Positions 17,916 to 61,712 of a stretch of DNA of 64,000 nucleotides are shown here, piece after piece. Each line of letters opens with the position of its first letter. Position 1 is the first letter of the stretch. Both the position numbers and the translations under genes were made by a program. The DNA lies in the NCBI GenBank assembly GCA_049318825.1, contig JBMOFM010000006.1:50013-114012 (forward strand). Reading direction: 5' to 3'. Below the pieces are notes generated by a model. That model saw only the letters and a list, made by a program, of their open reading frames with translations, was not told the DNA's origin and made no database searches. The stretch is from Alphaproteobacteria bacterium (lineage in GTDB: Bacteria > Pseudomonadota > Alphaproteobacteria > JBMOFM01).

Positions 17916-17970
17916 GGTGTTTCGCTGTACGCAGCATTATCTGCGGTGAATTTTGGATGAGGTGTGGTGC

Positions 17971-18978
17971 ATGAGGCTGCTTGTTGTAGATGATTCTGAT
18001 ATTTCGCGTGCCATGATTGGTGCTATTCTTAGCCGTGCTGGTTATGAGAATATTATTTTTGCCAATAGTGCCGATGAAGCCTTTGCTATTTTGGATATAG
18101 ATAATAACGCAGAAAAATCAGGCCCGTTGGTGGATTTAATTCTGCTGGATGTGTTAATGCCTAAGGTAAATGGCTTGGAAGCCTGCGCTAGAATTAAGGC
18201 CAATGTGCGTTATCGTCATGTGCCGGTGATTATTGCCACCACTTTAGTGGATGAAGAATATATGGCACAGGCTTTTACAGCGGGTGCTATCGATTTTGTT
18301 ACCAAGCCAGTTTCAGCGTTGGAATTGGTGTGCCGCACCCGCAATGCGCTGAAATTGAAAATGGAGATGGATCGCGCCTTGCAGCGTGAAAATGAATTGG
18401 TGTTATTATTGGCGGAAGCCCGCAGCACTGGTTCTGCTATTGGGATGAAGCTACCGCAGGTAAGCATAGATGTAACCACGGGGTTGCCCAATTTATTAGT
18501 GTTGGAGCATACGGTAGAATGGTTGTGCCAAAACAAGCTGTTTTCGCCCCTATCATTAAGTTTTTTTGAGATTAATGATTTTGCGGCCTATCAAACCTAT
18601 CAAGGGCATCCCGCGGCGGATCGTTTATCATTTTTAGTGGCCACGGCGTTACAGCGCCAATTATTGCATTTGGGGGCCAGTTTATTTCATGTGCGGGCGG
18701 GATTATTTGCCGTGATTGACCGCGATGCAGAATGGGAAAAATTACAACAGAGCGTGCCCGCCATTGTGGATGCTGTTTCTACGTTGCGTTTACCCCACGC
18801 TCATGCCACCGAGGGGGAGATTGTGACCTTGTCGGCGGCGGCGGTTTTTGCGGATAGTGGTCAGCGTTTGCAGCATCACTGGTTGATCAGGGGGGCAGAG
18901 GCCAATTTAGAAGACGCCAAAAAACTGGAAGATAAGCTAAAATTGGTGAAGTTGGTTGATTGGTTAGCGGTGAATTAG
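17971..18978 (+). CDS. response regulator: REC receiver domain plus a degenerate GGDEF-like C-terminal domain
   Basis: REC features: VVDDSD, phospho-acceptor D in LILLDVLMP, and T/K positions. The C-terminal half has a GGDEF-like fold signature (GLPN, INDFAAYQTYQGHPAADRL) but the catalytic GG(D/E)EF position reads RAGLF, so it is probably not an active cyclase. Confidence 0.6.
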   Translation: MRLLVVDDSDISRAMIGAILSRAGYENIIFANSADEAFAILDIDNNAEKSGPLVDLILLDVLMPKVNGLEACARIKANVRYRHVPVIIATTLVDEEYMAQAFTAGAIDFVTKPVSALELVCRTRNALKLKMEMDRALQRENELVLLLAEARSTGSAIGMKLPQVSIDVTTGLPNLLVLEHTVEWLCQNKLFSPLSLSFFEINDFAAYQTYQGHPAADRLSFLVATALQRQLLHLGASLFHVRAGLFAVIDRDAEWEKLQQSVPAIVDAVSTLRLPHAHATEGEIVTLSAAAVFADSGQRLQHHWLIRGAEANLEDAKKLEDKLKLVKLVDWLAVN

Positions 18979-19057
18979 GCTGCATGGATAAGACCCCCAT
19001 AGCCTGCGCTGAGCAGTGGATGGGGGGTATTTTTTACTGGTTGGATTTTTAATAATG

Positions 19058-19864
19058 AAGAACATAACAACATTAAAAATAGTCACATTATTGGCTTGGG
19101 GCGCTGTATTTGGTGCTGGGGAAGCAAGAGCGGGTGCTTGGACATTAAACCCTGGGGTGGGGCAGGTGATCACCAGTATTACCGCGGGTAATGCCAGCAG
19201 CTATTATGCTGATAATAGTGGCAAGAAATTGAATAAAACCGAGCTAACGGTTTATGGCGAATATGGGGTGAACCCATGGCTTACGGCCATTGTTGCGCCG
19301 CGCCAACAATGGTTTCGTTACAAACAAACTGGCTTTGCTAATAATGGCGATTTTACCTCGGTAGAGGCTGGCTTTCGCATGCGTTTATGGCAAAGCAATG
19401 CTTCGGTATTTTCGTTTCAGCTCACTGGTATTACCTCGTTGCGTGATTCTAGCAGTGGCGGTAATAATTTTGGCGGCAAGGGCGTGGAATATGATGTGCG
19501 TGGCTTATATGGCTATGGTATTTCGCCATTTATGGTCTCGAAGGGTGAACATGCCGATTTGTTTAGCCTGCCCATGTATGTGAATGCCGAAATCGCTTTC
19601 CGTGGGCGACCATCGCCATTATCGGATGAGGTGCGCACCGATATTGCCTTGGGCATTAAACCCAGCGATCGTTGGGAAATTCCTTTGCAATATTATGGCA
19701 TTTATGGGTTGGATGATGGTTATACCGGCCATAAGCTGCAATTATCTGGCATTTATGCCGTGGCGCCCGATTGGTTGGTGCAAGGCGGTGGCTATTACAC
19801 TTTTGCGGGGTCTGATTTCCCTAAAGAGCGCGGTGGCTTGCTGGCCGTGTGGAAGAAATTTTAA
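19058..19864 (+). CDS. small outer-membrane beta-barrel protein (possible porin or exporter)
   Basis: Signal peptide LAWGAVFGAGEARA; alternating amphipathic beta-strand pattern; C-terminal aromatic residue (...LAVWKKF), which is the OMP signature. Start moved to MKNITTLK. Confidence 0.5.
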   Translation, partial: KNITTLKIVTLLAWGAVFGAGEARAGAWTLNPGVGQVITSITAGNASSYYADNSGKKLNKTELTVYGEYGVNPWLTAIVAPRQQWFRYKQTGFANNGDFTSVEAGFRMRLWQSNASVFSFQLTGITSLRDSSSGGNNFGGKGVEYDVRGLYGYGISPFMVSKGEHADLFSLPMYVNAEIAFRGRPSPLSDEVRTDIALGIKPSDRWEIPLQYYGIYGLDDGYTGHKLQLSGIYAVAPDWLVQGGGYYTFAGSDFPKERGGLLAVWKKF

Positions 19865-19897
19865 GCCTGCGGCGGAAACTATTGCAAAATAGGGGCA

Positions 19898-21214
19898 ATG
19901 TGTTACACATTGCCCATGCCTTTATCCAGCCCTTCACCAAACCCTAGCGCGGCCGCTTCTGCGGTTGATTCCCTGCAGCAATATCGCTTGCAACAAGTGG
20001 AACAAGAGTTGCAAGAGCTGAAAGCGCGCGCGCAGGAAAGCCAGAAAGACTGGTTGCAGCGTTTAGAAAATAGCCAGAAAGAGTGGCGCAACGAAATTCA
20101 GGTGGAGCGGGATCAATATAACAAATCCGATGAACACCACCTCAATTTATACGAAAAACACCTCAATACGATTAGCGTTATTTTGGGTTTATTCGCAGGT
20201 GTGGTTGTGCTACTGAACTTTTTAGGGTGGCTGTTCGGGCGAAAATGGGTGAATGATTTTCTTGCTAAAAAAATCAATGAAAGCTTGGATAAAAAAGTAG
20301 ATGAACATATTAAAACATTCATTGACCCTCTTGAAACAAAGTTAAAGCAGAAAATTGTAGATCTTGAAGAACAAGGCCAACAGCTAATAGCTGAGCAAAA
20401 ACAGCAAGGCAAGTATCTACAAGCAACCCAATATTATGTGGATGCTGGCCGAGCGCTTGAAGAAAGAAATTATCTCCAAGCGATTGATTTATATAATGAC
20501 GCCATTGAGCTGAACCCGAAATTTGCTGAAGCCTATAATAATCGTGGGAATGCTAAGGCCGCGCTTGGTAAGCATGAAAAAGCAATCGAGGATTATAATG
20601 AAGCGATTAAGTTGAATGAGAATTATGCTGAGGCCTATAATAACCGTGGGAATGCTCATAGAAATCTTGGTGAGCATGAAGAGGCACTGGCAGATTATAA
20701 TAAGGCGATTGAGCTAAATGAGAATCTTGATATGCCCTATAATAATCGCGGGGTTGCTAAAGCAAGCCTTGGGAACTATGAAAAGGCAATCGAGGATTAT
20801 AATGAAGCGATTAAGTTGAATGAGAATTATGCTGATGCCTATCATAATCGTGGGAATGCTAAGGCCGCGCTTGGTGAGCACGAAGAGGCAATCACGGATT
20901 TTGATAAGGCGATTGAGCAGAACCTCAATGATGCCGAGACCTATAATAATCGTGGAGTTGCTAAAGCAAGACTTGGGAAGTACGAAGAGGCATTGGCGGA
21001 TTTTGATAAGGCAATCAGCTTGAAGCATGATTATGCTGGTGCTCATATTAATAAAGCTCGTATTTTTGCGCAGCAAAATCAGCCAACAAAGGCCTTGGTG
21101 GCCTTAGAACAAGCTATTCTCTATGATAAAGGCTTCAAAAAGCAAGCTAAGGAAGAAGCTGTTTTCAAGGTTTTGCAGGATAATCCAGAGTTTATAAAAT
21201 TAACAAAAGAATAG
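19898..21214 (+). CDS. membrane-anchored coiled-coil plus TPR-repeat protein
   Basis: N-terminal coiled coil and one TM (VILGLFAGVVVLLNFLGWLF), then at least 7 near-identical 34-aa TPR units (AEAYNNRGNAKAALGKHEKAIEDYNEAIKLNENY). The DNA-level repeats create antisense shadow ORFs. Confidence 0.6.
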   Translation: MCYTLPMPLSSPSPNPSAAASAVDSLQQYRLQQVEQELQELKARAQESQKDWLQRLENSQKEWRNEIQVERDQYNKSDEHHLNLYEKHLNTISVILGLFAGVVVLLNFLGWLFGRKWVNDFLAKKINESLDKKVDEHIKTFIDPLETKLKQKIVDLEEQGQQLIAEQKQQGKYLQATQYYVDAGRALEERNYLQAIDLYNDAIELNPKFAEAYNNRGNAKAALGKHEKAIEDYNEAIKLNENYAEAYNNRGNAHRNLGEHEEALADYNKAIELNENLDMPYNNRGVAKASLGNYEKAIEDYNEAIKLNENYADAYHNRGNAKAALGEHEEAITDFDKAIEQNLNDAETYNNRGVAKARLGKYEEALADFDKAISLKHDYAGAHINKARIFAQQNQPTKALVALEQAILYDKGFKKQAKEEAVFKVLQDNPEFIKLTKE

Positions 21215-26970: not shown

Positions 26971-27837
26971 GTGTTATGCGTTATGGCCGAAATTCTGGAT
27001 AAAAATGGGGATGTTATTTTTTCTATGAAGGGTTCCGATCTGGAAGCCGTATCTTACCTGCAAAATAATACAACTATTTCTATGCGTGGTATAGCCTTAG
27101 AAAAATGTAAGGGTAGTTTTTTTGATCAATTGGGGAAACTGCAATCCAGATCTGCTAATGTTTTTTCCAGCACTTCTCATAGACCCAAAGATATGCGGGA
27201 GGGTAGCTTTGTTCAATGCTGGCATGAAAACTATTATCCGATATCAGCCTATGATTTTTCTGGGGCAATTTTTAAGGATTGTTTTATAAAGGTTTCTTCT
27301 TCAAAAGCAGATGGTTTTCACTTATGTAATTTCCGCGCTGCGCAATTTATTAACTGCACCATCACCGGAAATTTTCATTATTGCGATCTTTCAGGGGTAG
27401 ATTTTAGTAACAGTAATACAGCCAGGGTTAAATTTGGTGATAATTGGTATGATGATAATAGTCATTTAGTTAGTTATGGGGTTGCTCTACCCAAAAAAGT
27501 GGAGCGCGTAAAAAAAAGAATAGAGCAAATTTTCAATTGGGATAAAATTATTCAAACACCGCCGCAACATGTTGGCGGTATTACGCCAGCCCTACAACAA
27601 CAGCTGGAAGCTATTATTAATGCTTCGCCTGAGCAGGCACAGCGATTATTACATGAAGCGAGACCGCAAGATATATTGGCTCTGGAATTGGCGGCTGATC
27701 TTTCTACGCTTTACAATAAAGTTGCCTTACCCGCCGATGATTCACTTGAAAATCACCAGCAGCGGCCTGATTTAACCAACCAACAAATTGCTGATATTGT
27801 GCGTATGGTCATGAAAAATCGCGGCCGCCGTCCTTGA
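26971..27837 (+). CDS. hypothetical protein with pentapeptide-repeat-like segments, carried on a roughly 1.1-kb insertion
   Basis: 288 aa. Central CNFRAAQFINCTITGNFHYCDLSGVDFSNSNTARVKFGD resembles pentapeptide-repeat units. Flanked by the 84-bp direct repeats. Confidence 0.45.
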   Translation: MLCVMAEILDKNGDVIFSMKGSDLEAVSYLQNNTTISMRGIALEKCKGSFFDQLGKLQSRSANVFSSTSHRPKDMREGSFVQCWHENYYPISAYDFSGAIFKDCFIKVSSSKADGFHLCNFRAAQFINCTITGNFHYCDLSGVDFSNSNTARVKFGDNWYDDNSHLVSYGVALPKKVERVKKRIEQIFNWDKIIQTPPQHVGGITPALQQQLEAIINASPEQAQRLLHEARPQDILALELAADLSTLYNKVALPADDSLENHQQRPDLTNQQIADIVRMVMKNRGRRP

Positions 27838-29764: not shown

Positions 29765-30002
29765 TAAACCTCCTGAAATTGAGTTAAGTTAAATACACAT
29801 CTTATTGTTTATACAAACCACTACTCACAAATCTTCGGTTGGTTTGAAAATAAATCTCGCACGGAAATTATCCCCCGCACCCCTTTTTTATTTCTGGCAC
29901 GATTCTTGCTAGGGTTACAATCGTGCCATGTTTTAAGCATTGGCTCGTTACTGGGCATGGAATGATCCATGCCCAGCGTATTTTTGTAAAAAGGAGAAGT
30001 TA

Positions 30003-30608
30003 ATGAATATTTCAGGTTTTTCATCCCTGAGTAGTGCTGGTTTTGATCCTTCAAAATTCAGCCAGAAAATTCAGGATAAGTTTACCAAAGATTTTGGTAG
30101 TGAGGCCTTAGCAGGGGTTCAAGATAAAGATGGCAATATTGACCCTAGTAAAATGAAAAGTTTTATGGAAAGCAAAGGCATGAAACCCCCAGCAGGTGCG
30201 CCGCCATTTGGCCAGATGGGTGGTGCTGGTGGCCCACCTTCTGGTATGGGTGGCCCTGATGGGGTTAGTAAAAGTGCTGGTGGGGATCAGAAAATTCTTG
30301 ATCTATTTAAACAAAGCTCGGATGAAGATGATGATGATGACTCATCAAACAAAATAACCGATAGCAATGGAAAAGTAGATTATAGCAAATTAAAGGATTT
30401 TCTTGATAAAGCTATTAATTCATTACAGAGCAATGCCAAAAGCTATTCAGCTGATGGCGCAGGTTCTGGTTTTGACCTCACCAGCTTTCTTGGTAAGCAA
30501 TCTTCGAACACAAGCAGCAGTAGTGATGATCTACAATCTCAATTGCTGCAAAGCCTATTTGGTAATAATGGCAGCAAAAATGGCTTATTTACCGATCTTA
30601 ATGCCTAG
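30003..30608 (+). CDS. low-complexity acidic, Gly/Ser-rich protein (likely disordered), function unknown
   Basis: Start moved to MNISGFSSL, preceded by AAAGGAGAAG. Contains SSDEDDDDDSS, GGAGGPPSGMGGPDG, and a poly-S stretch. Confidence 0.4.
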   Translation: MNISGFSSLSSAGFDPSKFSQKIQDKFTKDFGSEALAGVQDKDGNIDPSKMKSFMESKGMKPPAGAPPFGQMGGAGGPPSGMGGPDGVSKSAGGDQKILDLFKQSSDEDDDDDSSNKITDSNGKVDYSKLKDFLDKAINSLQSNAKSYSADGAGSGFDLTSFLGKQSSNTSSSSDDLQSQLLQSLFGNNGSKNGLFTDLNA

Positions 30609-39247: not shown

Positions 39248-40036
39248 GTGAGTAATGAAGCAGCCGAAATGGAAGCACAGGAAAAATATAGCACAATGAT
39301 GCTGGCGGTGGATGCGATCAGAGCCTATCAAGAAAAAAACTCTGATTTTATTTGGCAGAGAAAAGAAAATTTTCTGAGCGAATATCGACAGGGTCGGCGT
39401 GATTTTGCAGGTGAAGATTTGCGCGGGTTGTGCCTTGAATATAGCGGTATCCCACAATTTGAGAATTTAGTGCTGGATGATGCTAATGTAAGTGGCAGTC
39501 AATTCACAAGAGTAAAGTTCATTAATTTAAGCGCGAAAAATGCCCTATTCACTGATGTGGAAATGATAGAGATTATTGCTGAAGGGGCTGATTTCAGCGG
39601 TACTAATTTAGATAATATTGATGGTCATGAAGCCAGATTAGGCGGTTCAAATTTTTTTGGTGCGTCCCTCATTTATGCAAGTTTACGAAAAAGCAGTTTA
39701 TGGGAGTGTAATTTTACCGATGCGGATTGTACTTATGCCCAATTGAATGAGGCAAGCCTGAGAAGAGCAGATTTATGGAAAGCGTGTTTCTTGGCCGCCG
39801 GTCTTACAGAGGCTAAATTACAAGAAGCGAAATTGTACGATGCGGATTTTAGATTAGCGAACATTAGCGCCGCAAAATTTGAAAAGGCCGTGCCCAATAG
39901 CCAAACAATATGGACGGGCAGCCGCAATAGCCCTGAATCATTGCCAGAAGGCATGACGGCAGAGGCATTCAGCCAATTACAAAACCCTTCTGTAAAAAAA
40001 GCTGCCCCTAAAAGAAAGTTGGGATTGTGGTGGTAA
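39248..40036 (+). CDS. pentapeptide-repeat protein, paralog 1
   Basis: 262 aa, possible GTG start. The central region has runs of A-[DN]-[LF]-x-x pentads (ADFSGTNLDNIDGHEARLGGSNFFGASL...ADLWKACFLAAGLTEAKLQEAKLYDADFRLANISAAKF). Confidence 0.65.
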   Translation: MSNEAAEMEAQEKYSTMMLAVDAIRAYQEKNSDFIWQRKENFLSEYRQGRRDFAGEDLRGLCLEYSGIPQFENLVLDDANVSGSQFTRVKFINLSAKNALFTDVEMIEIIAEGADFSGTNLDNIDGHEARLGGSNFFGASLIYASLRKSSLWECNFTDADCTYAQLNEASLRRADLWKACFLAAGLTEAKLQEAKLYDADFRLANISAAKFEKAVPNSQTIWTGSRNSPESLPEGMTAEAFSQLQNPSVKKAAPKRKLGLWW

Positions 40037-40189
40037 TTATTGCGTTTTTTACTTGAATAGGGACTGAAACTTTTAATGCAAAAATCGAGGCCAAAATCAG
40101 GAAGAACATCACCCGCCGCAAAAAAATATTGCGTGGTCACGAAAAATCGCTACAATAAAAAAATTTATTTCAATGAAAGTTAAAATATT

Positions 40190-40966
40190 ATGAGCAATGA
40201 AGCAGCCGAGATGGAAGCACAGGAAAAATATCGCACAATGATGCTGGCGGTGAATGCGATCAGAGCCAATGAAGGAGTGTCTGGTCAGGCAGCACAAAGT
40301 TTTGCTAGCGATTATCAACATGGGCGGCGTGATTTTGCAGGCGAAGATTTGAGTGGGTTGTGGCTTAACTATAGCGGTATTCCACAATTTGAGAATTTAG
40401 TGCTGGATGGTGCCAAAGTAACTGGCGGTGTATTCACAGGAGTAAAGTTCATTAATTTAAGCGCGAGAGATGCCCTATTCACTGATACGCAAATGCAAAG
40501 GGTTATTTGTGAAGGTGCTGATTTCAGCGGCGCTAATTTAGATAATATTGATGGTCATGAAGCCAGATTAAATGGTTCAAATTTTTTTGGTGCGTCCCTA
40601 ATTCTCGCAAGTTTACGAAAAAGCAGTTTATGGGAGTGTAATTTTACCGATGCGGATTGTACTTATGCCCAATTGAATGAGGCAAGCCTGAGAAGAGCAG
40701 ATTTATGGAAAGCGTGTTTCTTGGCCGCCGGTCTTACAGAGGCTAAATTACAAGAAGCGAAATTGTACGATGCGGATTTTAGATTAGCGAACATTAGCGC
40801 CGCAAAATTTGAAAAGGCCGTGCCCAATAGCCAAACAATATGGACGGGCAGCCGCAATAGCCCGAAAACCTTGCCAGAAGGCATGACGGCAGAGGCATTC
40901 AGCCAATTACAAAACCCATATGTAAAAAAAGCTGCTCCCACAAAAAAATGGGGATTGTTGTGGTAA
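40190..40966 (+). CDS. pentapeptide-repeat protein, paralog 2
   Basis: 258 aa. The N-terminal 20 aa and C-terminal 150 aa are near-identical to paralog 1; the middle has diverged. Confidence 0.65.
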   Translation: MSNEAAEMEAQEKYRTMMLAVNAIRANEGVSGQAAQSFASDYQHGRRDFAGEDLSGLWLNYSGIPQFENLVLDGAKVTGGVFTGVKFINLSARDALFTDTQMQRVICEGADFSGANLDNIDGHEARLNGSNFFGASLILASLRKSSLWECNFTDADCTYAQLNEASLRRADLWKACFLAAGLTEAKLQEAKLYDADFRLANISAAKFEKAVPNSQTIWTGSRNSPKTLPEGMTAEAFSQLQNPYVKKAAPTKKWGLLW

Positions 40967-46483: not shown

Positions 46484-47791
46484 ATGAAGGGTTTAACGCG
46501 CCAGCAATGGATTGTTTTTATTGCGGCTTGGTTGGGTTGGGGCTTTGATGTTTTTGACGGATTGCTGTTCAATTACGTTGCCCCCAATTGCGTGCCAACC
46601 CTGTTGGGGCTTGAGATTGGCTCTCCTGCTGCCAAGGCTGCCACTTTGTATTGGACAGGCCTCATCACCTCTATGCTATTGCTGGGCTGGGCGGCAGGTG
46701 GAATTATTTTCGGCTATATTGGCGATAGGTTAGGGCGCAGTAAAACCCTGTTGCTCACCATGTTATTATATGCTTTGGGTACTGGCTTATGTGCTTTTGT
46801 GCCGAATATGGAATTATTATTACTGTGCCGTTTTATTGCCAGCCTTGGTATTGGTGGGGAATGGGCAGCGGGGGCTTCCATGGTGGCCGAAGCCATGCCC
46901 GAAAAATACCGCGTGGAAGCAGGGGCGTTGTTATATACCTCTGCGCCCATTGGGTTGTTTTTGGCCACAGCGGTGAATGCGATGATTACTGGTTTATTTC
47001 CTGATCAACCTGAGGTCTCGTGGCGTTATGTTTTTCTTTGTGGGTTAATTCCTGCTGCTTTAGCCTTTGTTATCCGTTTTTTCTTAAAAGAACCAGAACG
47101 CTGGCAAGAGGTGGCACAAAAGACAAAACCACCCCGTATTAGTGAATTATTTTCAGCCGAAAACCGCCGCTTTACTCGCAGCGGCGTATTAATGGCTTTG
47201 ATTGCTTTGCTCACATGGTGGAGTTGCAATGCTTTTATTCCCGTGGTGGCGGTGGGTCTAGGCCATGCCAGTGCAGAGGCTACAGGCATTATCGCCACGC
47301 AAGGCTTATTAGAAGGCTGGAAATCATGGCTTACTTCTGGCTTTAATTTGGGTGGCTTATTGGGTACATTGCTCACTATTCCAGCGGCCAAAATATTGGG
47401 CAGAAAAAAAATGTTCAGCCTTTATTTTGCGCTGGCTTCTCTTGCGTTACTCACGGCTTTTAGTGGGTTCATGCCGCAAGAGAAAATAGTGTGGACGGGC
47501 TTATATTTTGTGATTGGTCTCACGGTTTTTGGCGTATTTGGTAGTTTTACTTTTTACCTACCGGAACTTTTTCCTACCAGATTGCGCGCTACGGGTTCGG
47601 GCTTTTGCTATAATATTGGCCGCGTGATTACCTCTGTGGGCCCTTTTTTGGTCGGCAGCATCGCCGCACAAAAATCCAACGCCCTGCAAGGCGCGTTGGA
47701 TTTATTATTCTGGGTGGGCTTTATTCCCTTAATTGGCATTTTACTGATGCCTTTAGTGATAGAAACAAAAGGCCAAACATTGCGGGATTAG
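46484..47791 (+). CDS. MFS transporter
   Basis: 435 aa with 12 predicted TM and MFS loop motifs (G-x-x-x-D-R-x-G-R-like GDRLGRSKTLL). Confidence 0.7.
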   Translation: MKGLTRQQWIVFIAAWLGWGFDVFDGLLFNYVAPNCVPTLLGLEIGSPAAKAATLYWTGLITSMLLLGWAAGGIIFGYIGDRLGRSKTLLLTMLLYALGTGLCAFVPNMELLLLCRFIASLGIGGEWAAGASMVAEAMPEKYRVEAGALLYTSAPIGLFLATAVNAMITGLFPDQPEVSWRYVFLCGLIPAALAFVIRFFLKEPERWQEVAQKTKPPRISELFSAENRRFTRSGVLMALIALLTWWSCNAFIPVVAVGLGHASAEATGIIATQGLLEGWKSWLTSGFNLGGLLGTLLTIPAAKILGRKKMFSLYFALASLALLTAFSGFMPQEKIVWTGLYFVIGLTVFGVFGSFTFYLPELFPTRLRATGSGFCYNIGRVITSVGPFLVGSIAAQKSNALQGALDLLFWVGFIPLIGILLMPLVIETKGQTLRD

Positions 47792-49593
47792 TTGGATTGG
47801 CCATTATCAATTCTCTCCCCCATGAGGGCGCCATAGGCGGTGCTGAAGCCGGGGGTAGTGGCACCATTATATACCCCGCCTTCATGGGTGAAGTTCTGCA
47901 ATAGTTGGGTGTGTACCACCGCTATACCCGCTTGTACCAAATGCTGAACAAGTTGTGCCAATTCTATTCTGTTTTCTATAGCGGTGCCTTGATTTTTTAA
48001 CAGAAAGCGGCAGCGTTGATGATCCACCAGATAGGGGTCCATCAAGCTGGGCCACACCTCTTGCCCACGGTTGGTGATGCGTTGTAGCACATAATTTTCT
48101 CCCGCTGCTTCTTGCAATTGCTGCGCTAAAGATTGCAGAGCAATGATGGTTAATAACCGCCCCTGTTCTTGATATTTTTTCAATAGGGCAAGGGCTTCTG
48201 GTGCTGGCATTTGCTCAATAGATGCCGTGAAATAGCTATTATTAAACGACAAGCCGGCTTTTAAGGTGCGCACCCCCCAACTGATATATTCGCGTACACT
48301 CTCTGTTGTATGAAAATGGCTCACATTTAAGATGTCTTCATAATTTAAGCCTGTTTTCTGGTGCCAATATTGTAGAATATTGGCCTCTAATCCGTGCCAT
48401 TCAATAAACACATCCATCCCTAGAATATCGGTTTTTTGGGCTTTTACCAACATGGGTGGCGCCACGATTTTTTCTTTATGCGCGCGAAACTTATCCCATT
48501 TCAAGCAGCGTGCCTGTAGTGCCCCTTCTGGCACTTTTTGGCCGGATTTTATTTTTTCTAAACGCTGGGCAATTTCATCGCCAAATTCGTGGCAACCACG
48601 CTTTAATGAAACCGATGTTTCTTTCTCTTTTTCTTCTTGGTAAGCCCCGCGAATATCGCCAGTATGCACACCGTCTTGTAATGTCCATAACAGGGCATGG
48701 TATAAATGGCGCGCCGCTGTTTGATTACCATCGCCAATATGCACCAGCATATCAATAGCGGCCATTAATAAAGCCGTGGGGTTGGCCAGATTTTTGCCAG
48801 CAATATCGGGCGCGGTGCCGTGCATGGCTTCAAACATGGCATAATCTTGACCAATATTGGCTGAGCCCACCAAGCCAACGCCCCCCGCTAATTTTGCTGT
48901 AATATCTGAACCAATATCCCCAAAAATATTACTGGTAACCACCGCATCATATTTTTCTGGTTTAACTGCCAGTTCTGCTAGGCCATCATCAATATTTTTG
49001 AAAAATGAGGTGATGTGGGGCTCATATTCTTTAGCCAATTGCCAGAATATTTTTTCAAATAACCCGCCAGTATTTTTCAAAATATTGGGTTTTTCTAGCC
49101 CCAACATGGTTTTTCTACCCTGCTGCAGGGCCAATTCAAAAGCAATACGAATCGCTTTTTCACAGCCTTGATGGCTCATTAAACGCAAGGCCATTTTTAC
49201 ATTGGGGCTTTCATCATATTCAATGGCGGCGTATAAATCTTCAATATTTTCGCGCACAAATAATAAATCCATTTGTGGAAAATGGCTATCCACCACGGGG
49301 TAGAAGGAAGCACAGCGGCGCACCGAAACGCTTTGTTCAAAACCCTTACGCACCGTTACATTAAAGCTTTTACTGCCACCAATAGAAGAGGGGGTTTCTG
49401 TTGGCCCTTTCAGCACTATTTTATGCTTGCGAATAAGCGCAAAACAATCAGTAATTTCTTGCGCGCTGGCTTCTTTACCCAAATGGGCAGGAATAAAATC
49501 GATTTTCGCGCCCACTTTTTGTAAAAGACTAACCACCACATCACTAATTTCAGGCCCAATACCATCACCTTTAACCAAAACCACTGAACGCAT
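47788..49593 (-). CDS. isocitrate/isopropylmalate dehydrogenase-family enzyme fused to a roughly 255-aa C-terminal domain of unknown function
   Basis: N-terminal 345 aa: VVLVKGDGIGPEI, NIFGDIGSDITAKLAGGVGLVGSANIG, GTAPDIAGKNLANPTALLMA. The C-terminal 255 aa have no recognisable motif. Start set to ATG 49593 (RBS ggaga); the track extension to 49794 reads antisense through tRNA-His. Confidence 0.65.
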   Translation of the reverse strand: MRSVVLVKGDGIGPEISDVVVSLLQKVGAKIDFIPAHLGKEASAQEITDCFALIRKHKIVLKGPTETPSSIGGSKSFNVTVRKGFEQSVSVRRCASFYPVVDSHFPQMDLLFVRENIEDLYAAIEYDESPNVKMALRLMSHQGCEKAIRIAFELALQQGRKTMLGLEKPNILKNTGGLFEKIFWQLAKEYEPHITSFFKNIDDGLAELAVKPEKYDAVVTSNIFGDIGSDITAKLAGGVGLVGSANIGQDYAMFEAMHGTAPDIAGKNLANPTALLMAAIDMLVHIGDGNQTAARHLYHALLWTLQDGVHTGDIRGAYQEEKEKETSVSLKRGCHEFGDEIAQRLEKIKSGQKVPEGALQARCLKWDKFRAHKEKIVAPPMLVKAQKTDILGMDVFIEWHGLEANILQYWHQKTGLNYEDILNVSHFHTTESVREYISWGVRTLKAGLSFNNSYFTASIEQMPAPEALALLKKYQEQGRLLTIIALQSLAQQLQEAAGENYVLQRITNRGQEVWPSLMDPYLVDHQRCRFLLKNQGTAIENRIELAQLVQHLVQAGIAVVHTQLLQNFTHEGGVYNGATTPGFSTAYGALMGERIDNGQSN

Positions 49594-49717
49594 ATATTCT
49601 CCTATTGATAAAAGGGCAGTTAGAGAGCCATTTTTCTTTGCATGTGTCATCCTGACTTGAAAACAATATTGACGAAAGAGTAAAAATCTGAATAATGCAG
49701 TTTTATTAGTTAAGCAT

Positions 49718-49793
49718 GGCGGTTGTAGCTCAGCGGTAGAGCCCTCGGTTGTGGTCCGAGTTGTCGTGGGTTCGAACCCCATCAATCGCCCCA
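49718..49793 (+). tRNA. tRNA-His (GTG anticodon), with encoded G-1 and CCA
   Basis: Cloverleaf: G-1, acceptor gcggttg/caatcgc, D-arm tagctcagcggtagagc, anticodon stem ctcgg/ccgag with loop ttGTGgt, T-arm gtgggttcgaaccc, discriminator C, CCA. Confidence 0.85.
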
Positions 49794-49812
49794 TTCTTCA
49801 ACGATAATCTAT

Positions 49813-49885
49813 TCGAACCCACGAATTATTTTTATGTTTTGTTTCGTTGAACGAAACGGGGGTATCGAACCCCATCAATCGCCCT
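49813..49885 (+). repeat. partial direct repeats of the tRNA-His 3' end (att-like scar)
   Basis: ttcgaaccca at 49812-49821 and atcgaaccccatcaatcgccc at 49865-49885 repeat the tRNA segment ttcgaaccccatcaatcgccc (49771-49791). A palindrome gtttcgttgaacgaaac lies between them. Confidence 0.6.
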
Positions 49886-49903
49886 GTTTTTTTGACAATT
49901 TCC

Positions 49904-50491
49904 TTATGGCACACCCGCCAGATAGCCTTCCACCAAAGCAAAGGCCATGGCTTCTGGTGAAGAAGCGCCGGTAATCGCCAATTTGCCTGAAAGAGCTAAA
50001 ATAGTGATGCCATGAATACCCGCCCATAATATTTTGGCGGTTTGTTTTATGCTGGCTTCATCTTGCAGATTGGGGGCAATAGCTGTTTCTAATTGTTGGA
50101 AAAACCGTTGTAATTTTTCTTGATACCATAAGGGTATCTCATAATCTGGGCTGGCATGATACTCAAATAAGCCAAGCCAAGATTGTTGATGCTGCTCGCT
50201 ATATTGCAGATAAAATCGTGCCAAGCGGTGAATTAAGGAAAGATTATCTTCTTGCGCCAAGGCGGCCATCATGGCTTCATACCAATGGTCAAGGGTTTTG
50301 GCGTTAATATGGGTCATTAAATGATCGTAACTACCAAAAACATGATATAAAGTGCCCACGGAATAGCCTATTTTATTGGCCACCGCGCGGGCACTGAAAT
50401 TTTTTATTCCCTGTTCGCTAATCAGTTCATGCCCTGTATCAATAATCAGCTGTACCAATTCATCACGGCTATGATCCGAGCGTCTGGCCAT
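49904..50491 (-). CDS. TetR-family transcriptional regulator
   Basis: N-terminal HTH ...FSARAVANKIGYSVGTLYHVF. About 195 aa. Confidence 0.75.
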   Translation of the reverse strand: MARRSDHSRDELVQLIIDTGHELISEQGIKNFSARAVANKIGYSVGTLYHVFGSYDHLMTHINAKTLDHWYEAMMAALAQEDNLSLIHRLARFYLQYSEQHQQSWLGLFEYHASPDYEIPLWYQEKLQRFFQQLETAIAPNLQDEASIKQTAKILWAGIHGITILALSGKLAITGASSPEAMAFALVEGYLAGVP

Positions 50492-50493
50492 GG

Positions 50494-51555
50494 CTAGCCC
50501 CCCCATAAATGGCGTAAAGATTCTTCAGCTTTTTTATGTTGCGGGGTGAAGTCTATATCCCCCTTACCACCAGCTTGTGGATCGGTGAGCCAACGCCAGA
50601 TTAATACATGGCTGATATAGGGTTTGTTCAGCGTTTCAATCCACCAGCTTAAAATCTTGGCCTGCAACAGCTCATCAAATGGTGCTTGCCGTTCTTCGGG
50701 GCTGCGCCATGGTTCTGCTTGGGCATTTTGTGCCGACATCAAACCAATTTCGGTAATACTCACCGGCTTTTTATAGCGGGCGGAAAGGCGGGCTATTTGC
50801 TGTTCGGTTTGTTGCATTACCCCTTTTATATATTGCTCGTTCGGGGTTTCCCCCATTTTGGGGTAAAGGGTGATGCCAATCTCATCCACCAATGGCCAGA
50901 AAGGAACGCTGAGCGCGCCTTCTATACCATGAGCAACATAGATAATTTTACCGCGATAAACCCGCCTCACCCGCTCAATTAATAAAGGCCAGCGCGGGTG
51001 ATCTTGCGATTTATTCAACTCGGTACCCACGGCAAAATAAGCGCAACCAGCCTGTTGGGCAAGGGTGGCATAATATAAAATCACGCGTTCATAGGCATCA
51101 AACCAATGTTCCCACGCCTCACCATTGGGCGGTTCTATGGCACCCGCCCAACTGCCTTCTACCCATATATGGGGCTTTAGCATAATGGTAAAGCCTTGTT
51201 CGTGCGCCTGTTTAATGCCTTGCAATAAATCATTATCATGCACGGCCCTACCAAAATCTACCCGTGCGGCGCGGTTATTTTCCATCCACGCAAAAGGAAT
51301 AAAGGCCAGAACCCTAGCCCCCACAGAATCGGCCAATTGTAGCGATTGGCGAAACCCAGCACTGCCATAGGGCACATGATCGGCTTGAATAAGGTTAAAA
51401 CCACCCATGGGTTTAATAATGGTGGGGTTACGGGTGGTTTTTTTAAGGGGTGATTTGTTGTATAACCTGCCACCATTCAGTAATAATCCAGCCCCGCCCA
51501 AAATCCCCACAAGGCCAGTAAACATAATTTGCCGCCTGCTCAGCCATTTTGCCAT
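50494..51555 (-). CDS. secreted (Tat-type signal) glycoside hydrolase, clan GH-A-like (GH5/GH26/GH113-type (beta/alpha)8)
   Basis: N-terminal SRRQIMFTGLVGILGGAG looks like a twin-arginine signal. Candidate catalytic acid/base is GTELN and candidate nucleophile is TEIG. Confidence 0.4.
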   Translation of the reverse strand: MAKWLSRRQIMFTGLVGILGGAGLLLNGGRLYNKSPLKKTTRNPTIIKPMGGFNLIQADHVPYGSAGFRQSLQLADSVGARVLAFIPFAWMENNRAARVDFGRAVHDNDLLQGIKQAHEQGFTIMLKPHIWVEGSWAGAIEPPNGEAWEHWFDAYERVILYYATLAQQAGCAYFAVGTELNKSQDHPRWPLLIERVRRVYRGKIIYVAHGIEGALSVPFWPLVDEIGITLYPKMGETPNEQYIKGVMQQTEQQIARLSARYKKPVSITEIGLMSAQNAQAEPWRSPEERQAPFDELLQAKILSWWIETLNKPYISHVLIWRWLTDPQAGGKGDIDFTPQHKKAEESLRHLWGG

Positions 51556-53581: not shown

Positions 53582-54691
53582 TTACTGCGTAATAGAAGCA
53601 GTGTTGCTATTGCCTTGTTGAATAATACCAGCAATGTTACCAAAACCAGTTTGTATGAAGCTTTGGTAGTTGCTATCACCAATTTGTGAAGCGGTAATCA
53701 CGTTACCACCACTATATTGGCTAGCATAAATGCTGTTGAAATTACCAATTTGTTCGCCAGAGAAGCTTTGGTAATCATTTTCTTGATACAGCACGATGAT
53801 GTTGCTGTTGCCATTTTGGTAGGCATAAGCATAATCATAATTGCCCAATTGGGTAATATCAATCAGGTTATTTTCACCAAAGCTGTATAAATTAGTTGTA
53901 TTAAATTCACCCACGCGGAACAGGTTAATCACGTTGAACGTGCCAGCACCGCCCGTGCTATCTTGGTAAATAGAATCGGAGTTATTATCCCCAGTTTGGA
54001 TCAGGCTGTAGCTGTTGCCATCGCCATATTGAGAAATCAAACCAAAATTATTATTACCATCTTGCTCTAAATAAGCCTGATTATTGGAGCCATTTTGGTA
54101 CAAAATACCAAGGTTATAATTACCATTTTGCAAAATGCTGGCTAGGTTATTATCGCCATTTTCCTGCACGATGCTGGCGGCATTACCATCGCCATATTGG
54201 CTGATGGAGCCACTATTGCCCGAACCATTATATTGGGTAAGGAAAGTAGCGTTGCCATTGTCTTGGCTGTAAATAGAGCCAATGTTAGAATCGCCAAACT
54301 GAAGAGCATTAGATTGGTTATCATCGCCATATTGGGTGATAGAAAACACATTACCATTACCCACTTGGAAACCATATTGGTAGCCCGAATCGGTAAAATA
54401 AATACCGGGGCCTACAGAATTGCCATTACCATATTGGTTAACGCTAGCATTGTTGCTGTTGCCATTTTGTAAAAAAGGTTGAAACACACCTTCATTCAAA
54501 AAACCAATAATGTTGCTATCGCCTTGCTGATTGCCATAAAAGCTGTTGCCCTCACCGCTTACCTGATCGATACCCACTTGGTTGTTGAGGCCAGATTGGC
54601 TGATGGTGCTGGAGTTGCTATCAGCGTGCGCTGCGCTTGCTGCTAGGGTTAGCACCAACGCCATGGTGCCAAATAGAAAATTCTTGCTCAT
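53582..54691 (-). CDS. secreted curlin-repeat protein (CsgA/CsgB-like functional amyloid subunit)
   Basis: Signal peptide ...AASAAHA, then at least 10 imperfect 20-23-aa repeats with the curlin consensus S-x-I-x-Q-x-G-x-x-N-x-A-x-I-x-Q (ISQYGDGNAASIVQENGDNNLASILQNGNYNLGILYQNGSNNQAYLEQDGNNNFGLISQYGDGNSYSLIQTGDNNSDSIYQ). Confidence 0.6.
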   Translation of the reverse strand: MSKNFLFGTMALVLTLAASAAHADSNSSTISQSGLNNQVGIDQVSGEGNSFYGNQQGDSNIIGFLNEGVFQPFLQNGNSNNASVNQYGNGNSVGPGIYFTDSGYQYGFQVGNGNVFSITQYGDDNQSNALQFGDSNIGSIYSQDNGNATFLTQYNGSGNSGSISQYGDGNAASIVQENGDNNLASILQNGNYNLGILYQNGSNNQAYLEQDGNNNFGLISQYGDGNSYSLIQTGDNNSDSIYQDSTGGAGTFNVINLFRVGEFNTTNLYSFGENNLIDITQLGNYDYAYAYQNGNSNIIVLYQENDYQSFSGEQIGNFNSIYASQYSGGNVITASQIGDSNYQSFIQTGFGNIAGIIQQGNSNTASITQ

Positions 54692-57628: not shown

Positions 57629-58768
57629 TTATGGGGTGTTTTTCAGTAATTTCGGGCGGGGTAGTGTGTTGATGGGTACTGTTATTGTAGCAACTGGTCT
57701 TATCTCGCCGCTATCGGCATTAACGCGTTCAAACCACTTGGTTGTGCCCGTAAACTCCCAAGCTTTAGCCTTTGTATCCTCTTCTCTGGCTATTTTCCAG
57801 CTCTCAATAAAATTCATGGTGCTGGCGGCGCAGGGTGGTAAATTGGGTGAATTTTCAATGGTTTCACAAAAAGCGGTAAGCGTTTGCATGACTTGATTAA
57901 CCCTAACAATATTCCACCCTTGCGGCACAGGAAAGCCCCCCAAGGGCGTGAGCATATCCTGCGGGGTTAATGGAATGGGGTTAGGGGTATCCGAGCCATT
58001 AATATCCTCCATTTTCTTGAAAAAAAGTACTAGTGACTCAGGCGGGTATCCAGCTTCATATAACCGGCGAATGGTGGAAAGATCGGCATTACGTTCATTC
58101 GCGGCTTGTGAAATTTGGCTGCCATCAGCAAATTTTACTGTTCCCACCATTTTCGAGCTTTGTGTATCGAATCTCGCATCTACCCCACTATTATCATTGT
58201 CCTTTTTCAGCACCTCAACATCAATAATTTTTGCCCCTGCTTTTCCAGTTATTTCCCAATGGGCATATTCATGCGCGAATACGGCGGCTAATTGTTGTTC
58301 GGTTAATAACTTTAATAATTTGGCATGCATGCCAAATTTGGGGGTCGCGGCACTGAATAAGGGGTCGTGCCAAGCGCCCTGACCTTTTTCCGACCTGATT
58401 TCCACCGTCAGCTGGTGAAGATCGAAGCTGGGCGGCGTGACCGTGGAATCTGGAAAGCTATTGGTGCCTTGCATCAGCTGCTCCATAATGTGGGGCAAGC
58501 GGTTGATCATGGCATTAATTGTTGGGTCTGCAACATCATCGCCGGTGCGTTTATCTACCATTGTGATGCCGTTATCGGCAGAATATTGAATCCCTTCGGC
58601 AGCTTTTAATTCGTCTGCTGGCGTTTGGTATGATGCCGGTGCAACGCTGCTATCACTGGGCAAGGGCGGTAAAATAATGGGAGATTGTCCTTCTGCCTGT
58701 AGAGTGCCAGCCATAAGCGTTGTAGTTATAGTAATGGAAGCCGCCGCGATATTAAAAAACTGTTTCAT
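57629..58768 (-). CDS. secreted M48-like zinc metallopeptidase-domain protein, tandem paralog B
   Basis: Signal peptide; AHEYAHWE; ERNADLSTIRRLYEAGYPPESL; AFCETIENSPNLPPCAASTM. About 60 percent identical to paralog A in the C-terminal 150 aa. Confidence 0.55.
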   Translation of the reverse strand: MKQFFNIAAASITITTTLMAGTLQAEGQSPIILPPLPSDSSVAPASYQTPADELKAAEGIQYSADNGITMVDKRTGDDVADPTINAMINRLPHIMEQLMQGTNSFPDSTVTPPSFDLHQLTVEIRSEKGQGAWHDPLFSAATPKFGMHAKLLKLLTEQQLAAVFAHEYAHWEITGKAGAKIIDVEVLKKDNDNSGVDARFDTQSSKMVGTVKFADGSQISQAANERNADLSTIRRLYEAGYPPESLVLFFKKMEDINGSDTPNPIPLTPQDMLTPLGGFPVPQGWNIVRVNQVMQTLTAFCETIENSPNLPPCAASTMNFIESWKIAREEDTKAKAWEFTGTTKWFERVNADSGEIRPVATITVPINTLPRPKLLKNTP

Positions 58769-58858
58769 GGCTGTAAGGTGCTAAGGCAATTAAAAAACTC
58801 TATCATTTTACGATAATTAACGAGCAAACTCAAGTTGCTTTCTGCGCACAGCGATTTC

Positions 58859-60007
58859 CTATCGCTTAAAAGCGGGTTTTGAGGATTGTTTAGGCCGCGT
58901 GGTGGCTGTAGATAAAGGCGCGGTTGGTTGTAAAACCGGAGATAGAGATTGTAGATTGCGCAGCCATTTTTCTGTGCCCTGATATGCCCATGCTTCACCT
59001 TGCTGGTCTAACGCTTGTGCTTCTTGTTGCCAGCTGGCCACCAATTTGTTAGTGCTTTCGGGGCAGGTTTCAATAGCACAGAACCCAGCCAGAGCATTCA
59101 TTACCTGTGCTACCCTGAATATTGGCCAACCATGCGGACTACGAGAGCCATCACTAGAGACCACGTCAAAAGGCGTGGTGGGGATAGGGGCAGGGGTTTT
59201 GTCTCCCCACACTTTTTGTAATCGTACCATCGCTAATATAAAAGCTTCAGGGGGCAAGCCGCCGGCATGTAGGCGCTTGATGCTGGCTAAATCGGCGTTG
59301 CGTTCATCGCCAGAGGCCAGTAATTTTGTGCCATCATCAAAATGGAAGCCCATAAACTCACGGCTGGCATGGTAATATTTTTCATTAAAAATAGGCATGT
59401 GAAAACCATTTTTGCCGTCTATTTTTCTGTAAAAACTTGCGGGGTCTGCTGGAGCTAAAGGTTGATTGTTAAACACTCCCTTTTTACCGTGAACCTCTCT
59501 ATGGCCAAATTCATGCGCCAATATTCCCGCCAGTTCAATCTCATTAACCTCTTTGAGTAACGCTGTTGTGATTTCAAAAGCTGGCTGTTCTGCTGGAAAA
59601 CTATGGTCATAAAAGGCATTGGGGTCTTCACTTGCGCTAATTAGAATTTGCATGTGATTGATATCAAGCTCACTAGGGGTAATGGTAGAACCTGGGAAGC
59701 TATTGCTGCCCCGTAATAGCTTTTTTAGTATTTCTGGGAGTTGGGCAATGTTTTCATTCATTCTTTTATCGGTTAGATCACCGCCGCTGCGTTGATCGAT
59801 AATCGTAAAACCATGGCGCTGCGGTGCGATATTTTCTAAAGCTGGCGCATTGGCGGTGGTGGGGGCAGACTGTTCTACAGCCAAAGACGGCATGCCAGTG
59901 AACATGACCGAGCCAATGGCAAAAGACATGGCAACACGGGATGCAATGCCGTTGGCCGCTTGATTAAATGCCTGTTTAATGCCCATATATTTACAATAAA
60001 TATGCAA
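58859..60007 (-). CDS. secreted M48-like zinc metallopeptidase-domain protein, tandem paralog C (more divergent)
   Basis: Signal peptide; AHEFGHRE; ERNADLASIKRLHAGGLPPEAF; GFCAIETCPESTNKL. Confidence 0.5.
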   Translation of the reverse strand: MHIYCKYMGIKQAFNQAANGIASRVAMSFAIGSVMFTGMPSLAVEQSAPTTANAPALENIAPQRHGFTIIDQRSGGDLTDKRMNENIAQLPEILKKLLRGSNSFPGSTITPSELDINHMQILISASEDPNAFYDHSFPAEQPAFEITTALLKEVNEIELAGILAHEFGHREVHGKKGVFNNQPLAPADPASFYRKIDGKNGFHMPIFNEKYYHASREFMGFHFDDGTKLLASGDERNADLASIKRLHAGGLPPEAFILAMVRLQKVWGDKTPAPIPTTPFDVVSSDGSRSPHGWPIFRVAQVMNALAGFCAIETCPESTNKLVASWQQEAQALDQQGEAWAYQGTEKWLRNLQSLSPVLQPTAPLSTATTRPKQSSKPAFKR

Positions 60008-60029
60008 CTTATATTGATTTTACAATAAT

Positions 60030-60515
60030 TTGCATTTAGGTTCAATGAATATTTTGCTGGAGACACCTTCAATGAGCAGCGATTTTACTGAAGAACAACA
60101 ATCACGTAATTATTATCGTTTATGGTTGCAGGATGAGGTGCGCTTTAGCGATTTGGATGCGTTGGGGCATGTCAGTTCGGTGCGTATGCACGAGTTTTTA
60201 GCCACCGCCCGCACCATGCTGTTTGTAAAAGCCATCCCCGATTATCCCCATGCTGCCATTATTCCCATTCTCAAAAAACAATTGGCGGTGCATCAGCATG
60301 AAATTAACTACCCCGCTAGTTTGGATATTGGTCTCACCATAGAGCGCATGGGCAATAGTTCTGTCACTTTTTGTTTGGGTATTTTTCAAGGCACGCAATG
60401 CGCCGTGCTGGCACGCAATGTTTTTGTGTTTAGTGATCGGCAGGCACGCCGATCACACGCCCCGCCGCAGCAGGTAGTCGAAAATTTTATGACATTGGCA
60501 GGGCGTATTTTATAA
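60030..60515 (+). CDS. hotdog-fold acyl-CoA thioesterase (YbgC/4HBT-like)
   Basis: DLDALGHVSSVRMHEF matches the 4HBT D-x-D-x-x-G-H-V-N-N pattern. About 150 aa. Confidence 0.5.
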   Translation: MHLGSMNILLETPSMSSDFTEEQQSRNYYRLWLQDEVRFSDLDALGHVSSVRMHEFLATARTMLFVKAIPDYPHAAIIPILKKQLAVHQHEINYPASLDIGLTIERMGNSSVTFCLGIFQGTQCAVLARNVFVFSDRQARRSHAPPQQVVENFMTLAGRIL

Positions 60516-61712
60516 GCCCATATTTCTTTTTATATGCCACCATCGGGCTTGAATTTTTTCAGTCCACTCTTGCCCTTGTTGTAACACACCTTCAAATTTT
60601 TGCGTGAAGGATTGAGCCGTGCCAATTTTGGGAAATTGTCTAAACGCACAATCCATCCGTTGCCAATATTTTGTTGCAAAAGAATCCATGCCTATCCGTT
60701 CATAGCGGTCACAAGTGAGCTGATCCACCGCTACAGAATTGGCCTTGATGGTAAAAATAGGGCTCTTTTTATCTGCTTGTGTGCAAGTAAAAGGGCACAC
60801 CGCTGTTGCAACGCCTTCTTTGAGTTCTTGTAGGGATGTATCTGGCTTAAATAAAGTGCCGTCTCTCGCAAGCAATGCACCATTACTGGCTGGCCGCTGA
60901 AACTGTACATGATAAACACCAGTAAATAAGCCATCTGTTACCTGAGCGGCAATATTGGGGGGCAATGGAAAAGAAGGCAGGGGCGCTTCAACATTTTTGT
61001 AAATAGAGGCACTGCTGGCTTCTATGGCGGGGAAACAATCAAGCGATTGAGAGTTGATGAGCTCAGCCGCCGCGCCCATGGCAAAACATAGGCTGATTTG
61101 GGTAAGAATTTTGGGATCTTTATATTGTCGAACCACATCCAACCAGTCAATTTCCAACAATAGTTCTTGATCAGCAGAAACGGCCATGGCCGTAATACCG
61201 ATAGAATTGAGAGAATTGACCACAGTTCCCACTGCCATTCCACCAAAATTGAGGGGGGATATAACAAGGGTGCGCTCATATTTTTGTGTGCAATAATTAT
61301 AATCGCCAGAAAAATTGGTGTTATTATTTTTGTATAATAATACAGCCAAGGCACGGTTTAACATGTGTGCACCATATTCAATGGTTTCACTCGGTAATGG
61401 TATTTTATTAAGCCGTTGACAACGGGCAATCAATTCGCTTTTTTCACTGGCTTGCAGATAGCTTGTTTCAGAAAACACTCGGCCTGAGGCTTCATCGAAT
61501 TTGGTTCGGTTATAAAATTCGCCGATATTGCCAGCAAAAACAGCCACAATTTCATGGGCCGCAATATCAGGCAAGGGTTGGGTATAGATGACTTCTCTAC
61601 CGGAGTGTGGGTCTTTATAAAATGACCATAAATCACCACTGCTAATGAAACGCTGTGCAAATTCTTTGCTGTGTGTATTCACCACCCGCAGCAATTCTTT
61701 ATGGTCCATCAC
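60510..61712 (-). CDS. hypothetical 400-aa cytoplasmic protein
   Basis: Long ORF with good codon periodicity; no motifs recognised; no signal peptide. Confidence 0.4.
   Translation of the reverse strand: MMDHKELLRVVNTHSKEFAQRFISSGDLWSFYKDPHSGREVIYTQPLPDIAAHEIVAVFAGNIGEFYNRTKFDEASGRVFSETSYLQASEKSELIARCQRLNKIPLPSETIEYGAHMLNRALAVLLYKNNNTNFSGDYNYCTQKYERTLVISPLNFGGMAVGTVVNSLNSIGITAMAVSADQELLLEIDWLDVVRQYKDPKILTQISLCFAMGAAAELINSQSLDCFPAIEASSASIYKNVEAPLPSFPLPPNIAAQVTDGLFTGVYHVQFQRPASNGALLARDGTLFKPDTSLQELKEGVATAVCPFTCTQADKKSPIFTIKANSVAVDQLTCDRYERIGMDSFATKYWQRMDCAFRQFPKIGTAQSFTQKFEGVLQQGQEWTEKIQARWWHIKRNMGL

Follow-up and report, generated by a model that had tools for sequence, protein, structure and literature searches.

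Results

Our analysis points to a past integration event at the 3' end of a tRNA-His gene in the window, i.e. the whole stretch of 64,000 nucleotides of DNA analyzed here. With a probability of roughly 0.6 we regard the region as an att-flanked remnant of a tyrosine-integrase element that had integrated into tRNA-His. The 3' portion of the gene is present twice, and the insertion between the two copies measures 72 nt, which leaves room for no gene. The features referred to below are the following (window positions):

49669-49696, + strand: candidate sigma-70-like promoter of tRNA-His, TTGACG-16-AATAAT (consensus scan only, 10/12 match), about 22 nt upstream of G-1
49718-49793, + strand: tRNA-His(GTG), apparently intact (ARAGORN, Rfam, sequence)
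49772-49791, + strand: copy 1 of the direct repeat, attL-type core, TCGAACCCCATCAATCGCCC, T55 to C74 of tRNA-His
49794-49811, + strand: 18 nt of non-tRNA DNA directly behind the tRNA, putative element side of attL (P' arm remnant); no match in phage, plasmid or viral-contig sequences
49812-49824, + strand: 13-nt inverted copy of the T-arm 5' half, TTCGAACCCACGA, perfectly complementary to 49764-49776 (TCGTGGGTTCGAA)
49841-49857, no strand assigned: palindrome GTTTCGTT-G-AACGAAAC, immediately left of copy 2
49858-49864, + strand: GGGGGTA, similar to the T-stem 5' strand (GTGGGT in the tRNA), putative element-derived core half-site (C) of attR
49865-49884, + strand: copy 2 of the direct repeat, attR-type core, exact 20-nt copy of T55-C74, followed by CTG in place of CCA
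49885-49893, + strand: TG and a T7 run after copy 2, presumed original tRNA trailer/terminator

The tRNA-His gene and its neighbors

ARAGORN identified tRNA-His(GTG) at 49719-49793 as the sole tRNA in the 64-kb window, and the Rfam tRNA model scores 60.8 bits on 49719-49790. By direct reading, G-1 (49718), the discriminator C73 (49790) and the CCA end (49791-49793) are all encoded. The genes on both sides, an icd-like gene (47788-49593) and a TetR-family gene (49904-50506), lie on the opposite strand; an exact-sequence look-up of the TetR-family protein gave no match. One open reading frame (47788-49794, - strand) covers tRNA-His, and the suspicion of the initial annotation that it had been over-extended across the tRNA was well founded: the annotated 601-aa protein P0001 (100% identical) starts with an ATG at 49593 that is preceded by an AGGAGA ribosome-binding site. 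The gene call running over tRNA-His is hereby corrected to a 601-aa isocitrate-dehydrogenase-family protein starting at 49593. Among 5.8 billion proteins its nearest other homologue is only 46% identical, so that no close relatives are at hand for comparison.

This isocitrate-dehydrogenase-family protein (47788-49593, - strand) is unusually long with its 601 aa. Pfam has no match for a stretch of about 165 residues (roughly 323-486) that separates the Iso_dh from the bacterial IDH C-terminal domain, and a typical Icd homologue match (~480-500 aa) covers just 66% of the protein. The two nearest homologues, of 651 aa (46% identical) and 624 aa (45% identical), also have the long form.

A direct repeat of the tRNA-His 3' end

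The 21-mer TTCGAACCCCATCAATCGCCC occurs at 49771-49791 (0 mismatches) and again at 49864-49884 (1 mismatch). A check within the 64-kb window found no copies beyond these two, and none at all was seen in 100 shuffled sequences; the 20/21 repeat is far above chance. The second copy described in the initial annotation thus exists, although not as an 18/21 match at 49865-49885 but as a 20/21 match at 49864-49884. The exact shared block comprises 20 nt, from T55 to C74 of the tRNA (49772-49791 = 49865-49884), the two copies lying 93 nt apart; an ungapped comparison of 49772-49798 with 49865-49891 yields 24/27 identities. An insert bounded by a direct repeat of the tRNA 3' portion, here exact over 20/20 positions, is what characterizes tRNA-targeted integrative elements. 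The TG + T7 stretch behind copy 2 can be compared with the T-run trailers that directly follow tRNA-His at three surveyed loci, L033, L028 and L036 (CCCCATTTTTTT, CCCCATGTTTTC). Copy 2, like these native genes, is followed by a T-run, and this speaks in favor of the integration scenario.

For identity counts the surroundings of copy 2 were set in register with tRNA-His. The block itself shows 20/21 identities; 3/10 positions agree in the adjoining 10 nt on the left, 13/50 in the preceding 50 nt and 4/10 on the right. The 13/50 upstream of the block is at random level, and the break falls at the T-stem/T-loop junction. The left break occurs at the same position in the two other duplicated tRNA-His loci described below, L021 (20/21 vs 15/50) and L034 (21/21 vs 17/50). 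In a decayed tandem tRNA gene, identity would be expected to fade gradually along the length. A step at the T-stem/T-loop junction fits a site-specific crossover in the T-loop and not a decayed tandem copy, and a decayed tandem tRNA-His gene is disfavored by the 13/50 identity upstream of the T-loop and by the lack of a second ARAGORN or Rfam match, even at E<=10. Also, the 93-nt unit behind copy 2 does not repeat the unit behind copy 1, which argues against any simple tandem duplication. A break in the T-loop is predicted by the known T-loop sublocation of tRNA-targeting integrases (reviewed in 10.1101/2020.11.02.365908), and the identity from T55 on places the site in this sublocation class of tRNA att sites.

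The 8 nt left of copy 2 (CGGGGGTA) resemble the T-stem 5' strand CGTGGGT, and GGGGGTA (49858-49864) together with 49870-49873 forms a T-arm-like hairpin. In L034, too, the short stretch that adjoins the block on the left is similar to the 5' strand of the T stem. Judged by their sequence, such bases would be as expected of an element-derived core half-site.

The 72-nt interior

The interior contains the 13-nt inverted motif, whose 11-mer core is expected 0 times by chance. The motif sits in a small hairpin, ATTCG/CGAAT (49811-49826), which is followed by a T-rich run (49825-49840). The initial annotation had read a 10-bp partial direct copy of the tRNA end at 49812-49821, but the direct match is 9 nt only and the element is a perfect inverted copy of 13 nt. 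In L034 the T-loop reads TTCGAGTCCC and the direct reading of the motif fails; a direct copy is thereby ruled out and the inverted reading confirmed. Serial integration, which the initial annotation had offered as one explanation, rested on this middle repeat, and three direct TTCGAACCC copies as a sign of serial integration were rejected for the same two reasons. The intervening palindrome, in contrast, was described correctly, GTTTCGTT-G-AACGAAAC occupying 49841-49857. A hairpin just left of the second copy is also present in L021 and L034.

In blastn-short comparisons of 49794-49900 with the window all matches were to the segment itself and to the tRNA, and about 55 nt of the interior are without local template in the 64-kb window; foreign DNA is therefore needed in any case. 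Two further candidates were tried and rejected. A dispersed repeat (MITE/REP-like) would be present in several copies, and no further copies of the interior occur within the window. A pseudo-tRNA at 49811-49886, with GTTTC-GTTGAAC-GAAAC as anticodon arm (U33 and A37 present), would have a variable region of 1 nt and no acceptor 5' strand; it is detected by no tool and its identity to the real tRNA is at random level.

Duplicated 3' ends and integration at other tRNA-His loci

A metagenome scan with the anticodon-arm sequence of the window as query returned 37 tRNA-His loci. Two independent cases among them carry a second T-loop-to-3' copy, L021 (of which L049 is a duplicate) at +125 nt with 20/21 identities and L034 at +197 nt with 21/21. 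The repeat in L034 extends about 50 nt beyond the tRNA. Both loci differ from the window in GC content (~0.54-0.56 vs 0.45) and in their acceptor stems, and they consequently represent independent lineages and separate events. A third match in L021, at +4322, was rejected as attR since it belongs to an unrelated tRNA-Leu.

The interiors of the window, L034 and L021 show no overall homology in alignments apart from the motif. The inverted motif CGAACCCACGAA with its T-rich run lies 57 nt left of the second copy in L034 and 52 nt in the window. Among the 53 loci checked, an extra copy of CGAACCCACGAA occurs only in L034 and in L016, the latter being the window's own sequence from an independent assembly. 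The shared inverted motif suggests related donor elements in the window and L034.

In L021, about 22 nt behind the second copy, a T-arm-like piece TCGTGTTCGAAC is found at 8132-8143 (the tRNA has TCGTGGGTTCGAG); it may be due to chance or may be a trace of an older junction.

A scan of a genome collection for the 20-mer retrieved tRNA-His genes of Novosphingobium, Porphyrobacter and a few Firmicutes, with one exact copy per 8-kb locus. The tRNA-His 3' end is widely conserved. The lineage of the window is absent from these matches, so the matches in Sphingomonadales and Firmicutes do not amount to a comparison of relatives.

Sequence comparisons with further loci indicate that tRNA-His is a real integration target. 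In L029 (JACCDG010985384.1) an integrase N-terminus (Arm-DNA-bind_3 + Phage_int_M) starts about 170 nt after a near-identical tRNA-His; the integrase is 47.6% identical to P4 Int, and P4-like GGGGGCATAAT repeats lie between tRNA and integrase. L029 and L035 (JACCDR010236435.1) are 91.6% identical and have in common tRNA-His and 73 nt beyond it, after which L029 continues into the P4-family integrase and L035 into a dTDP-4-dehydrorhamnose epimerase. Their point of divergence thus lies outside the tRNA, and this suggests that different elements, or a remnant, share one attL-proximal arm. The scan of the genome collection also retrieved an orphan T-loop-to-C74 20-mer, located at 3159-3178 in a Sphingomicrobium MAG (DATJHF010000046.1, L002) and lacking any tRNA gene within 8 kb. 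It is preceded by a small hairpin and followed by GCGCGTTTTT, and has the appearance of the distal (attR) boundary of an island that had integrated at tRNA-His. The viral contig IMGVR_UViG_3300044984_001489 (L055, oriented positions 650-698) contains part of a tRNA-His, extending from the anticodon stem to CCA and receiving no ARAGORN call, which is probably an attP with anticodon-loop sublocation of a gammaproteobacterial-type tRNA-His. Of the six downstream ORFs scanned at the surveyed tRNA-His loci, one is an integrase.

Searches for an integrase and a parent element

Pfam scans were conducted on 54 window ORFs, using a threshold of at least 50 aa in the flank at 44-50 kb and of at least 150 aa in the remainder (i.e. 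the 56 ORFs of at least 150 aa minus four short nested ones, plus two shorter ones near the tRNA). No integrase, recombinase or transposase domain was found in these 54 ORFs, and the cognate integrase envisaged by the initial annotation is not among them. Nor does the 72 nt between the repeats contain an integrase gene. The genes of the window are ordinary chromosomal housekeeping genes, among them CoxIII, RuvAB, ArgG, HisG, LysA, acetate kinase, a FabI-like protein and ZnuABC. Scans of viral contigs for the 20-mer, for the interior and for the combination of motif, gap and core gave 0 matches, and blastn of the interior against phage records and plasmids returned chance matches of 25 nt only. 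An intact element sharing the 72-nt interior was found neither in viral contigs nor in phage records nor in plasmids; the sole link is the 12-nt motif in common with L034.

Discussion

An integration scenario at tRNA-His

The evidence outlined above would be accommodated by the following course of events. A tyrosine-integrase element with P4-like T-loop crossover would have inserted into tRNA-His. Its attP would have supplied a new T-loop-to-CCA end (copy 1, attL), so that the tRNA stayed functional, and the original 3' end with its T-run trailer would have been displaced to the far side (copy 2, attR). Later the element interior including the integrase would have been lost. The attL side would account for about 18 nt of the 72-nt residue and the attR-proximal arm for about 54 nt, the latter comprising the inverted T-arm half-site, the AT-rich stretch and the hairpin. 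We infer the order of these events, which copy is the native one and what role the internal motifs have. The present state agrees with a decayed att-flanked remnant, in that both repeats (putative att sites) are kept and no integration or transfer genes lie between them. The remnant should be unable to excise alone, and a repeat of 20 nt offers little length for homologous recombination; it would therefore persist as a stable scar. Elements of the same specificity that arrive later could also use it as a secondary target. The wording "remnant of an excised island" in the initial annotation follows a wrong logic and should be given up: after precise excision one attB would be left and no second copy, while two copies 93 nt apart mean that the insertion is still there, reduced to 72 nt.

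Several observations sit less comfortably with this scenario. The loss of all but ~70 nt with both cores kept needs luck or a specific mechanism. All three duplicates (window, L021, L034) are shorter than 200 nt; the retrieved loci were short, however, and detection is therefore biased to short insertions. Copy 2 lacks CCA (CTG instead), so that a later loss of 2 nt is needed if it is the native end, and a repeat reaching 50 nt past the tRNA, as in L034, is long for an att identity block. Also, a simple scar does not predict that the inverted half-site is kept at near-equal spacing (52 vs 57 nt). Its location is analogous to that of the arm sites in P4, and it could thus be an additional integrase site within the P arm; alternatively, it could have arisen when synapsis took place in the wrong orientation on the palindromic TTCGAA overlap, or it could belong to an RNA structure.

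Alternative explanations

A local duplication without any recombinase, either as a decayed tandem tRNA-His or by a template switch that pivots on the T-loop TTCGAA and generates direct and inverted copies, is an unlikely competitor. Template switching typically leaves direct and inverted copies of neighboring sequence within 100 nt, and the perfect 13-nt inverted repeat has its pivot in TTCGAA, a self-complementary sequence. Such an origin, however, is hard to reconcile with identity falling at one position from 20/21 to 13/50, with a unit after copy 2 that is no repeat of the unit after copy 1, or with an interior of which some 55 nt have no local template; neither ARAGORN nor Rfam sees a second tRNA or pseudo-tRNA, and that three lineages break at one and the same position speaks for a site-specific process. 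Slightly less probable in our judgment is a functional RNA trailer, in which elements of a read-through pre-tRNA would have been kept for their usefulness as terminator, processing or decoy structure. Its parts would be an anti-T-arm strand (the inverted motif), a hairpin, a T-arm/acceptor mimic and a U7 run. The 183-nt transcript 49718-49900 indeed folds into an extended cloverleaf (-62.4 kcal/mol, z = -4.57), where copy 2 is base-paired to the acceptor 5' strand and the inverted motif to the 5' half of the T arm; a long-loop closing stem AAACGGGGG/CCCUGUUU precedes U-rich sequence, and in L034 as in the window a T-rich run comes directly after the motif. Yet the strong fold follows from the repeats and is no independent evidence, and the trailer alone is not unusually stable (z = -1.21). 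The terminator consensus scan detected no + strand site and a single weak one on the - strand (49873-49859), and Rfam matches in the region were to no family other than tRNA. Furthermore, the T arm would fold co-transcriptionally ahead of the synthesis of the competing strand, the three interiors (window, L021 and L034) can be aligned nowhere outside the motif, and two examples are too few for covariation.

A further reading, which we consider improbable, would see in the trailer not a dead scar but a recurrent, selected tRNA-His module made up of inverted half-site, T-rich run, hairpin and T-arm/acceptor mimic. Such a module would act either as an attachment site folded from single-stranded DNA, where pairing of the motif with the left half of copy 2 would rebuild a duplex core in analogy to CTX-phi attP or integron attC, or as an RNA switch or terminator that would compete with T-arm folding in the read-through pre-tRNA. 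An artefact of metagenome assembly, i.e. a repeat-induced misjoin at the conserved tRNA 3' end, is the least probable explanation. The source is a MAG, and conserved tRNA ends can attract chimeric joins, but a separate Logan assembly of SRR30676221 (L016) agrees in all 393 overlapping bases at the junction and has the same flanking genes, which makes a one-off misassembly unlikely, and the same architecture is seen in contigs of other projects. Compared to all of these, the att-flanked remnant remains our preferred reading.

Comparison with known systems

Among the closest known counterparts is the P4 attP (X51522.1), whose annotated 20-nt core (4078-4097) begins in the tRNA-Leu T-loop and reaches the acceptor end, with an AT-rich spacer and arm-type repeats about 54-77 nt left of the core. 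P4 attP / E. coli leuX and the window share the ~20-nt identity block from T-loop to acceptor end as well as an AT-rich arm left of the core, the protein-binding repeats of P4 being located at about 54-77 nt. The P4 family is further linked to sites of this kind by the P4-family integrase that adjoins the near-identical tRNA-His in L029. Unlike P4, the window is without integrase, its insertion measures 72 nt in contrast to 11.6 kb, the target is tRNA-His and not tRNA-Leu, and the internal motif is an inverted half-site of the window's own core and not an arm repeat of the P4 type GGGGGCAT.

Elements that have kept attL and attR and lost the integration genes form an established class, the CIMEs (PMC5704250; PMC3146451). 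Described CIMEs, however, usually span kilobases and have a known parent, whereas the 72 nt in the window are gene-free and no parent was found. As to mobilization by accretion, a circle of 93 bp would probably be too small to arise. The ssrA islands of Dehalococcoides likewise have their borders marked by a 20-bp T-loop-proximal repeat of the 3' end of an essential small-RNA gene, and some of their repeat-bounded units are without integration module (PMC3146451). They differ in that a serine recombinase is involved and gene-bearing islands extend over up to 100 kb; the window has one direct duplicate with no genes between the copies. For tRNA islands, direct repeats from T-loop to CCA of typically 20-25 nt are the norm, and the minimum length applied there in island finding is 3.5 kb (10.1101/2020.11.02.365908). 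The region is most likely a miniature integration scar, which is a well-known kind, and the instance reported here is new and unusual only in its small size.

The region can be regarded as the record of an earlier integration at tRNA-His, from an alphaproteobacterial lineage that has been sampled poorly; by itself it carries little weight. To our knowledge, att-flanked insertions under 200 nt have rarely been catalogued. Three of the surveyed tRNA-His loci (window, L021/L049 and L034) appear to harbor them, and tools that require an integrase or a minimum length would miss such scars, which could in turn be secondary landing sites. The shared inverted half-site may show part of the attP arm of an uncharacterised tRNA-His-specific element family. 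It would be of interest if it proved general, or if it turned out to act in pre-tRNA processing or in an att site folded from a single strand.

Further features of the window

Some features away from the tRNA locus are reported here as separate observations. A same-strand cluster at 11532-21214 (+ strand) encodes a weakly BcsB-like protein of 816 aa, a GT2 glycosyltransferase, a response regulator with GGDEF domain and a TPR protein, and looks like a c-di-GMP-linked exopolysaccharide locus. Its GT2 glycosyltransferase, which has an N-terminal MshEN domain (14120-16072), overlaps a 673-aa ORF without Pfam match (15894-17915) by about 180 nt; this overlap may be a start-codon artefact. At 1e-5, Pfam gave no match for three ORFs at 57629-61712 (- strand; 379, 382 and 400 aa), and besides 15894-17915 the same holds true for the ORFs at 19016-19864, 26971-27837 and 29940-30608. 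The lowest GC content of the window (0.39) is reached at 28-30 kb, where an ECF-type sigma factor is encoded. Two adjacent pentapeptide-repeat paralogues of about 260 aa are located at 39248-40966 (+ strand), and a 369-aa protein with curlin repeats is encoded at 53582-54691 (- strand), downstream of a TetR/GH113/aminotransferase block.
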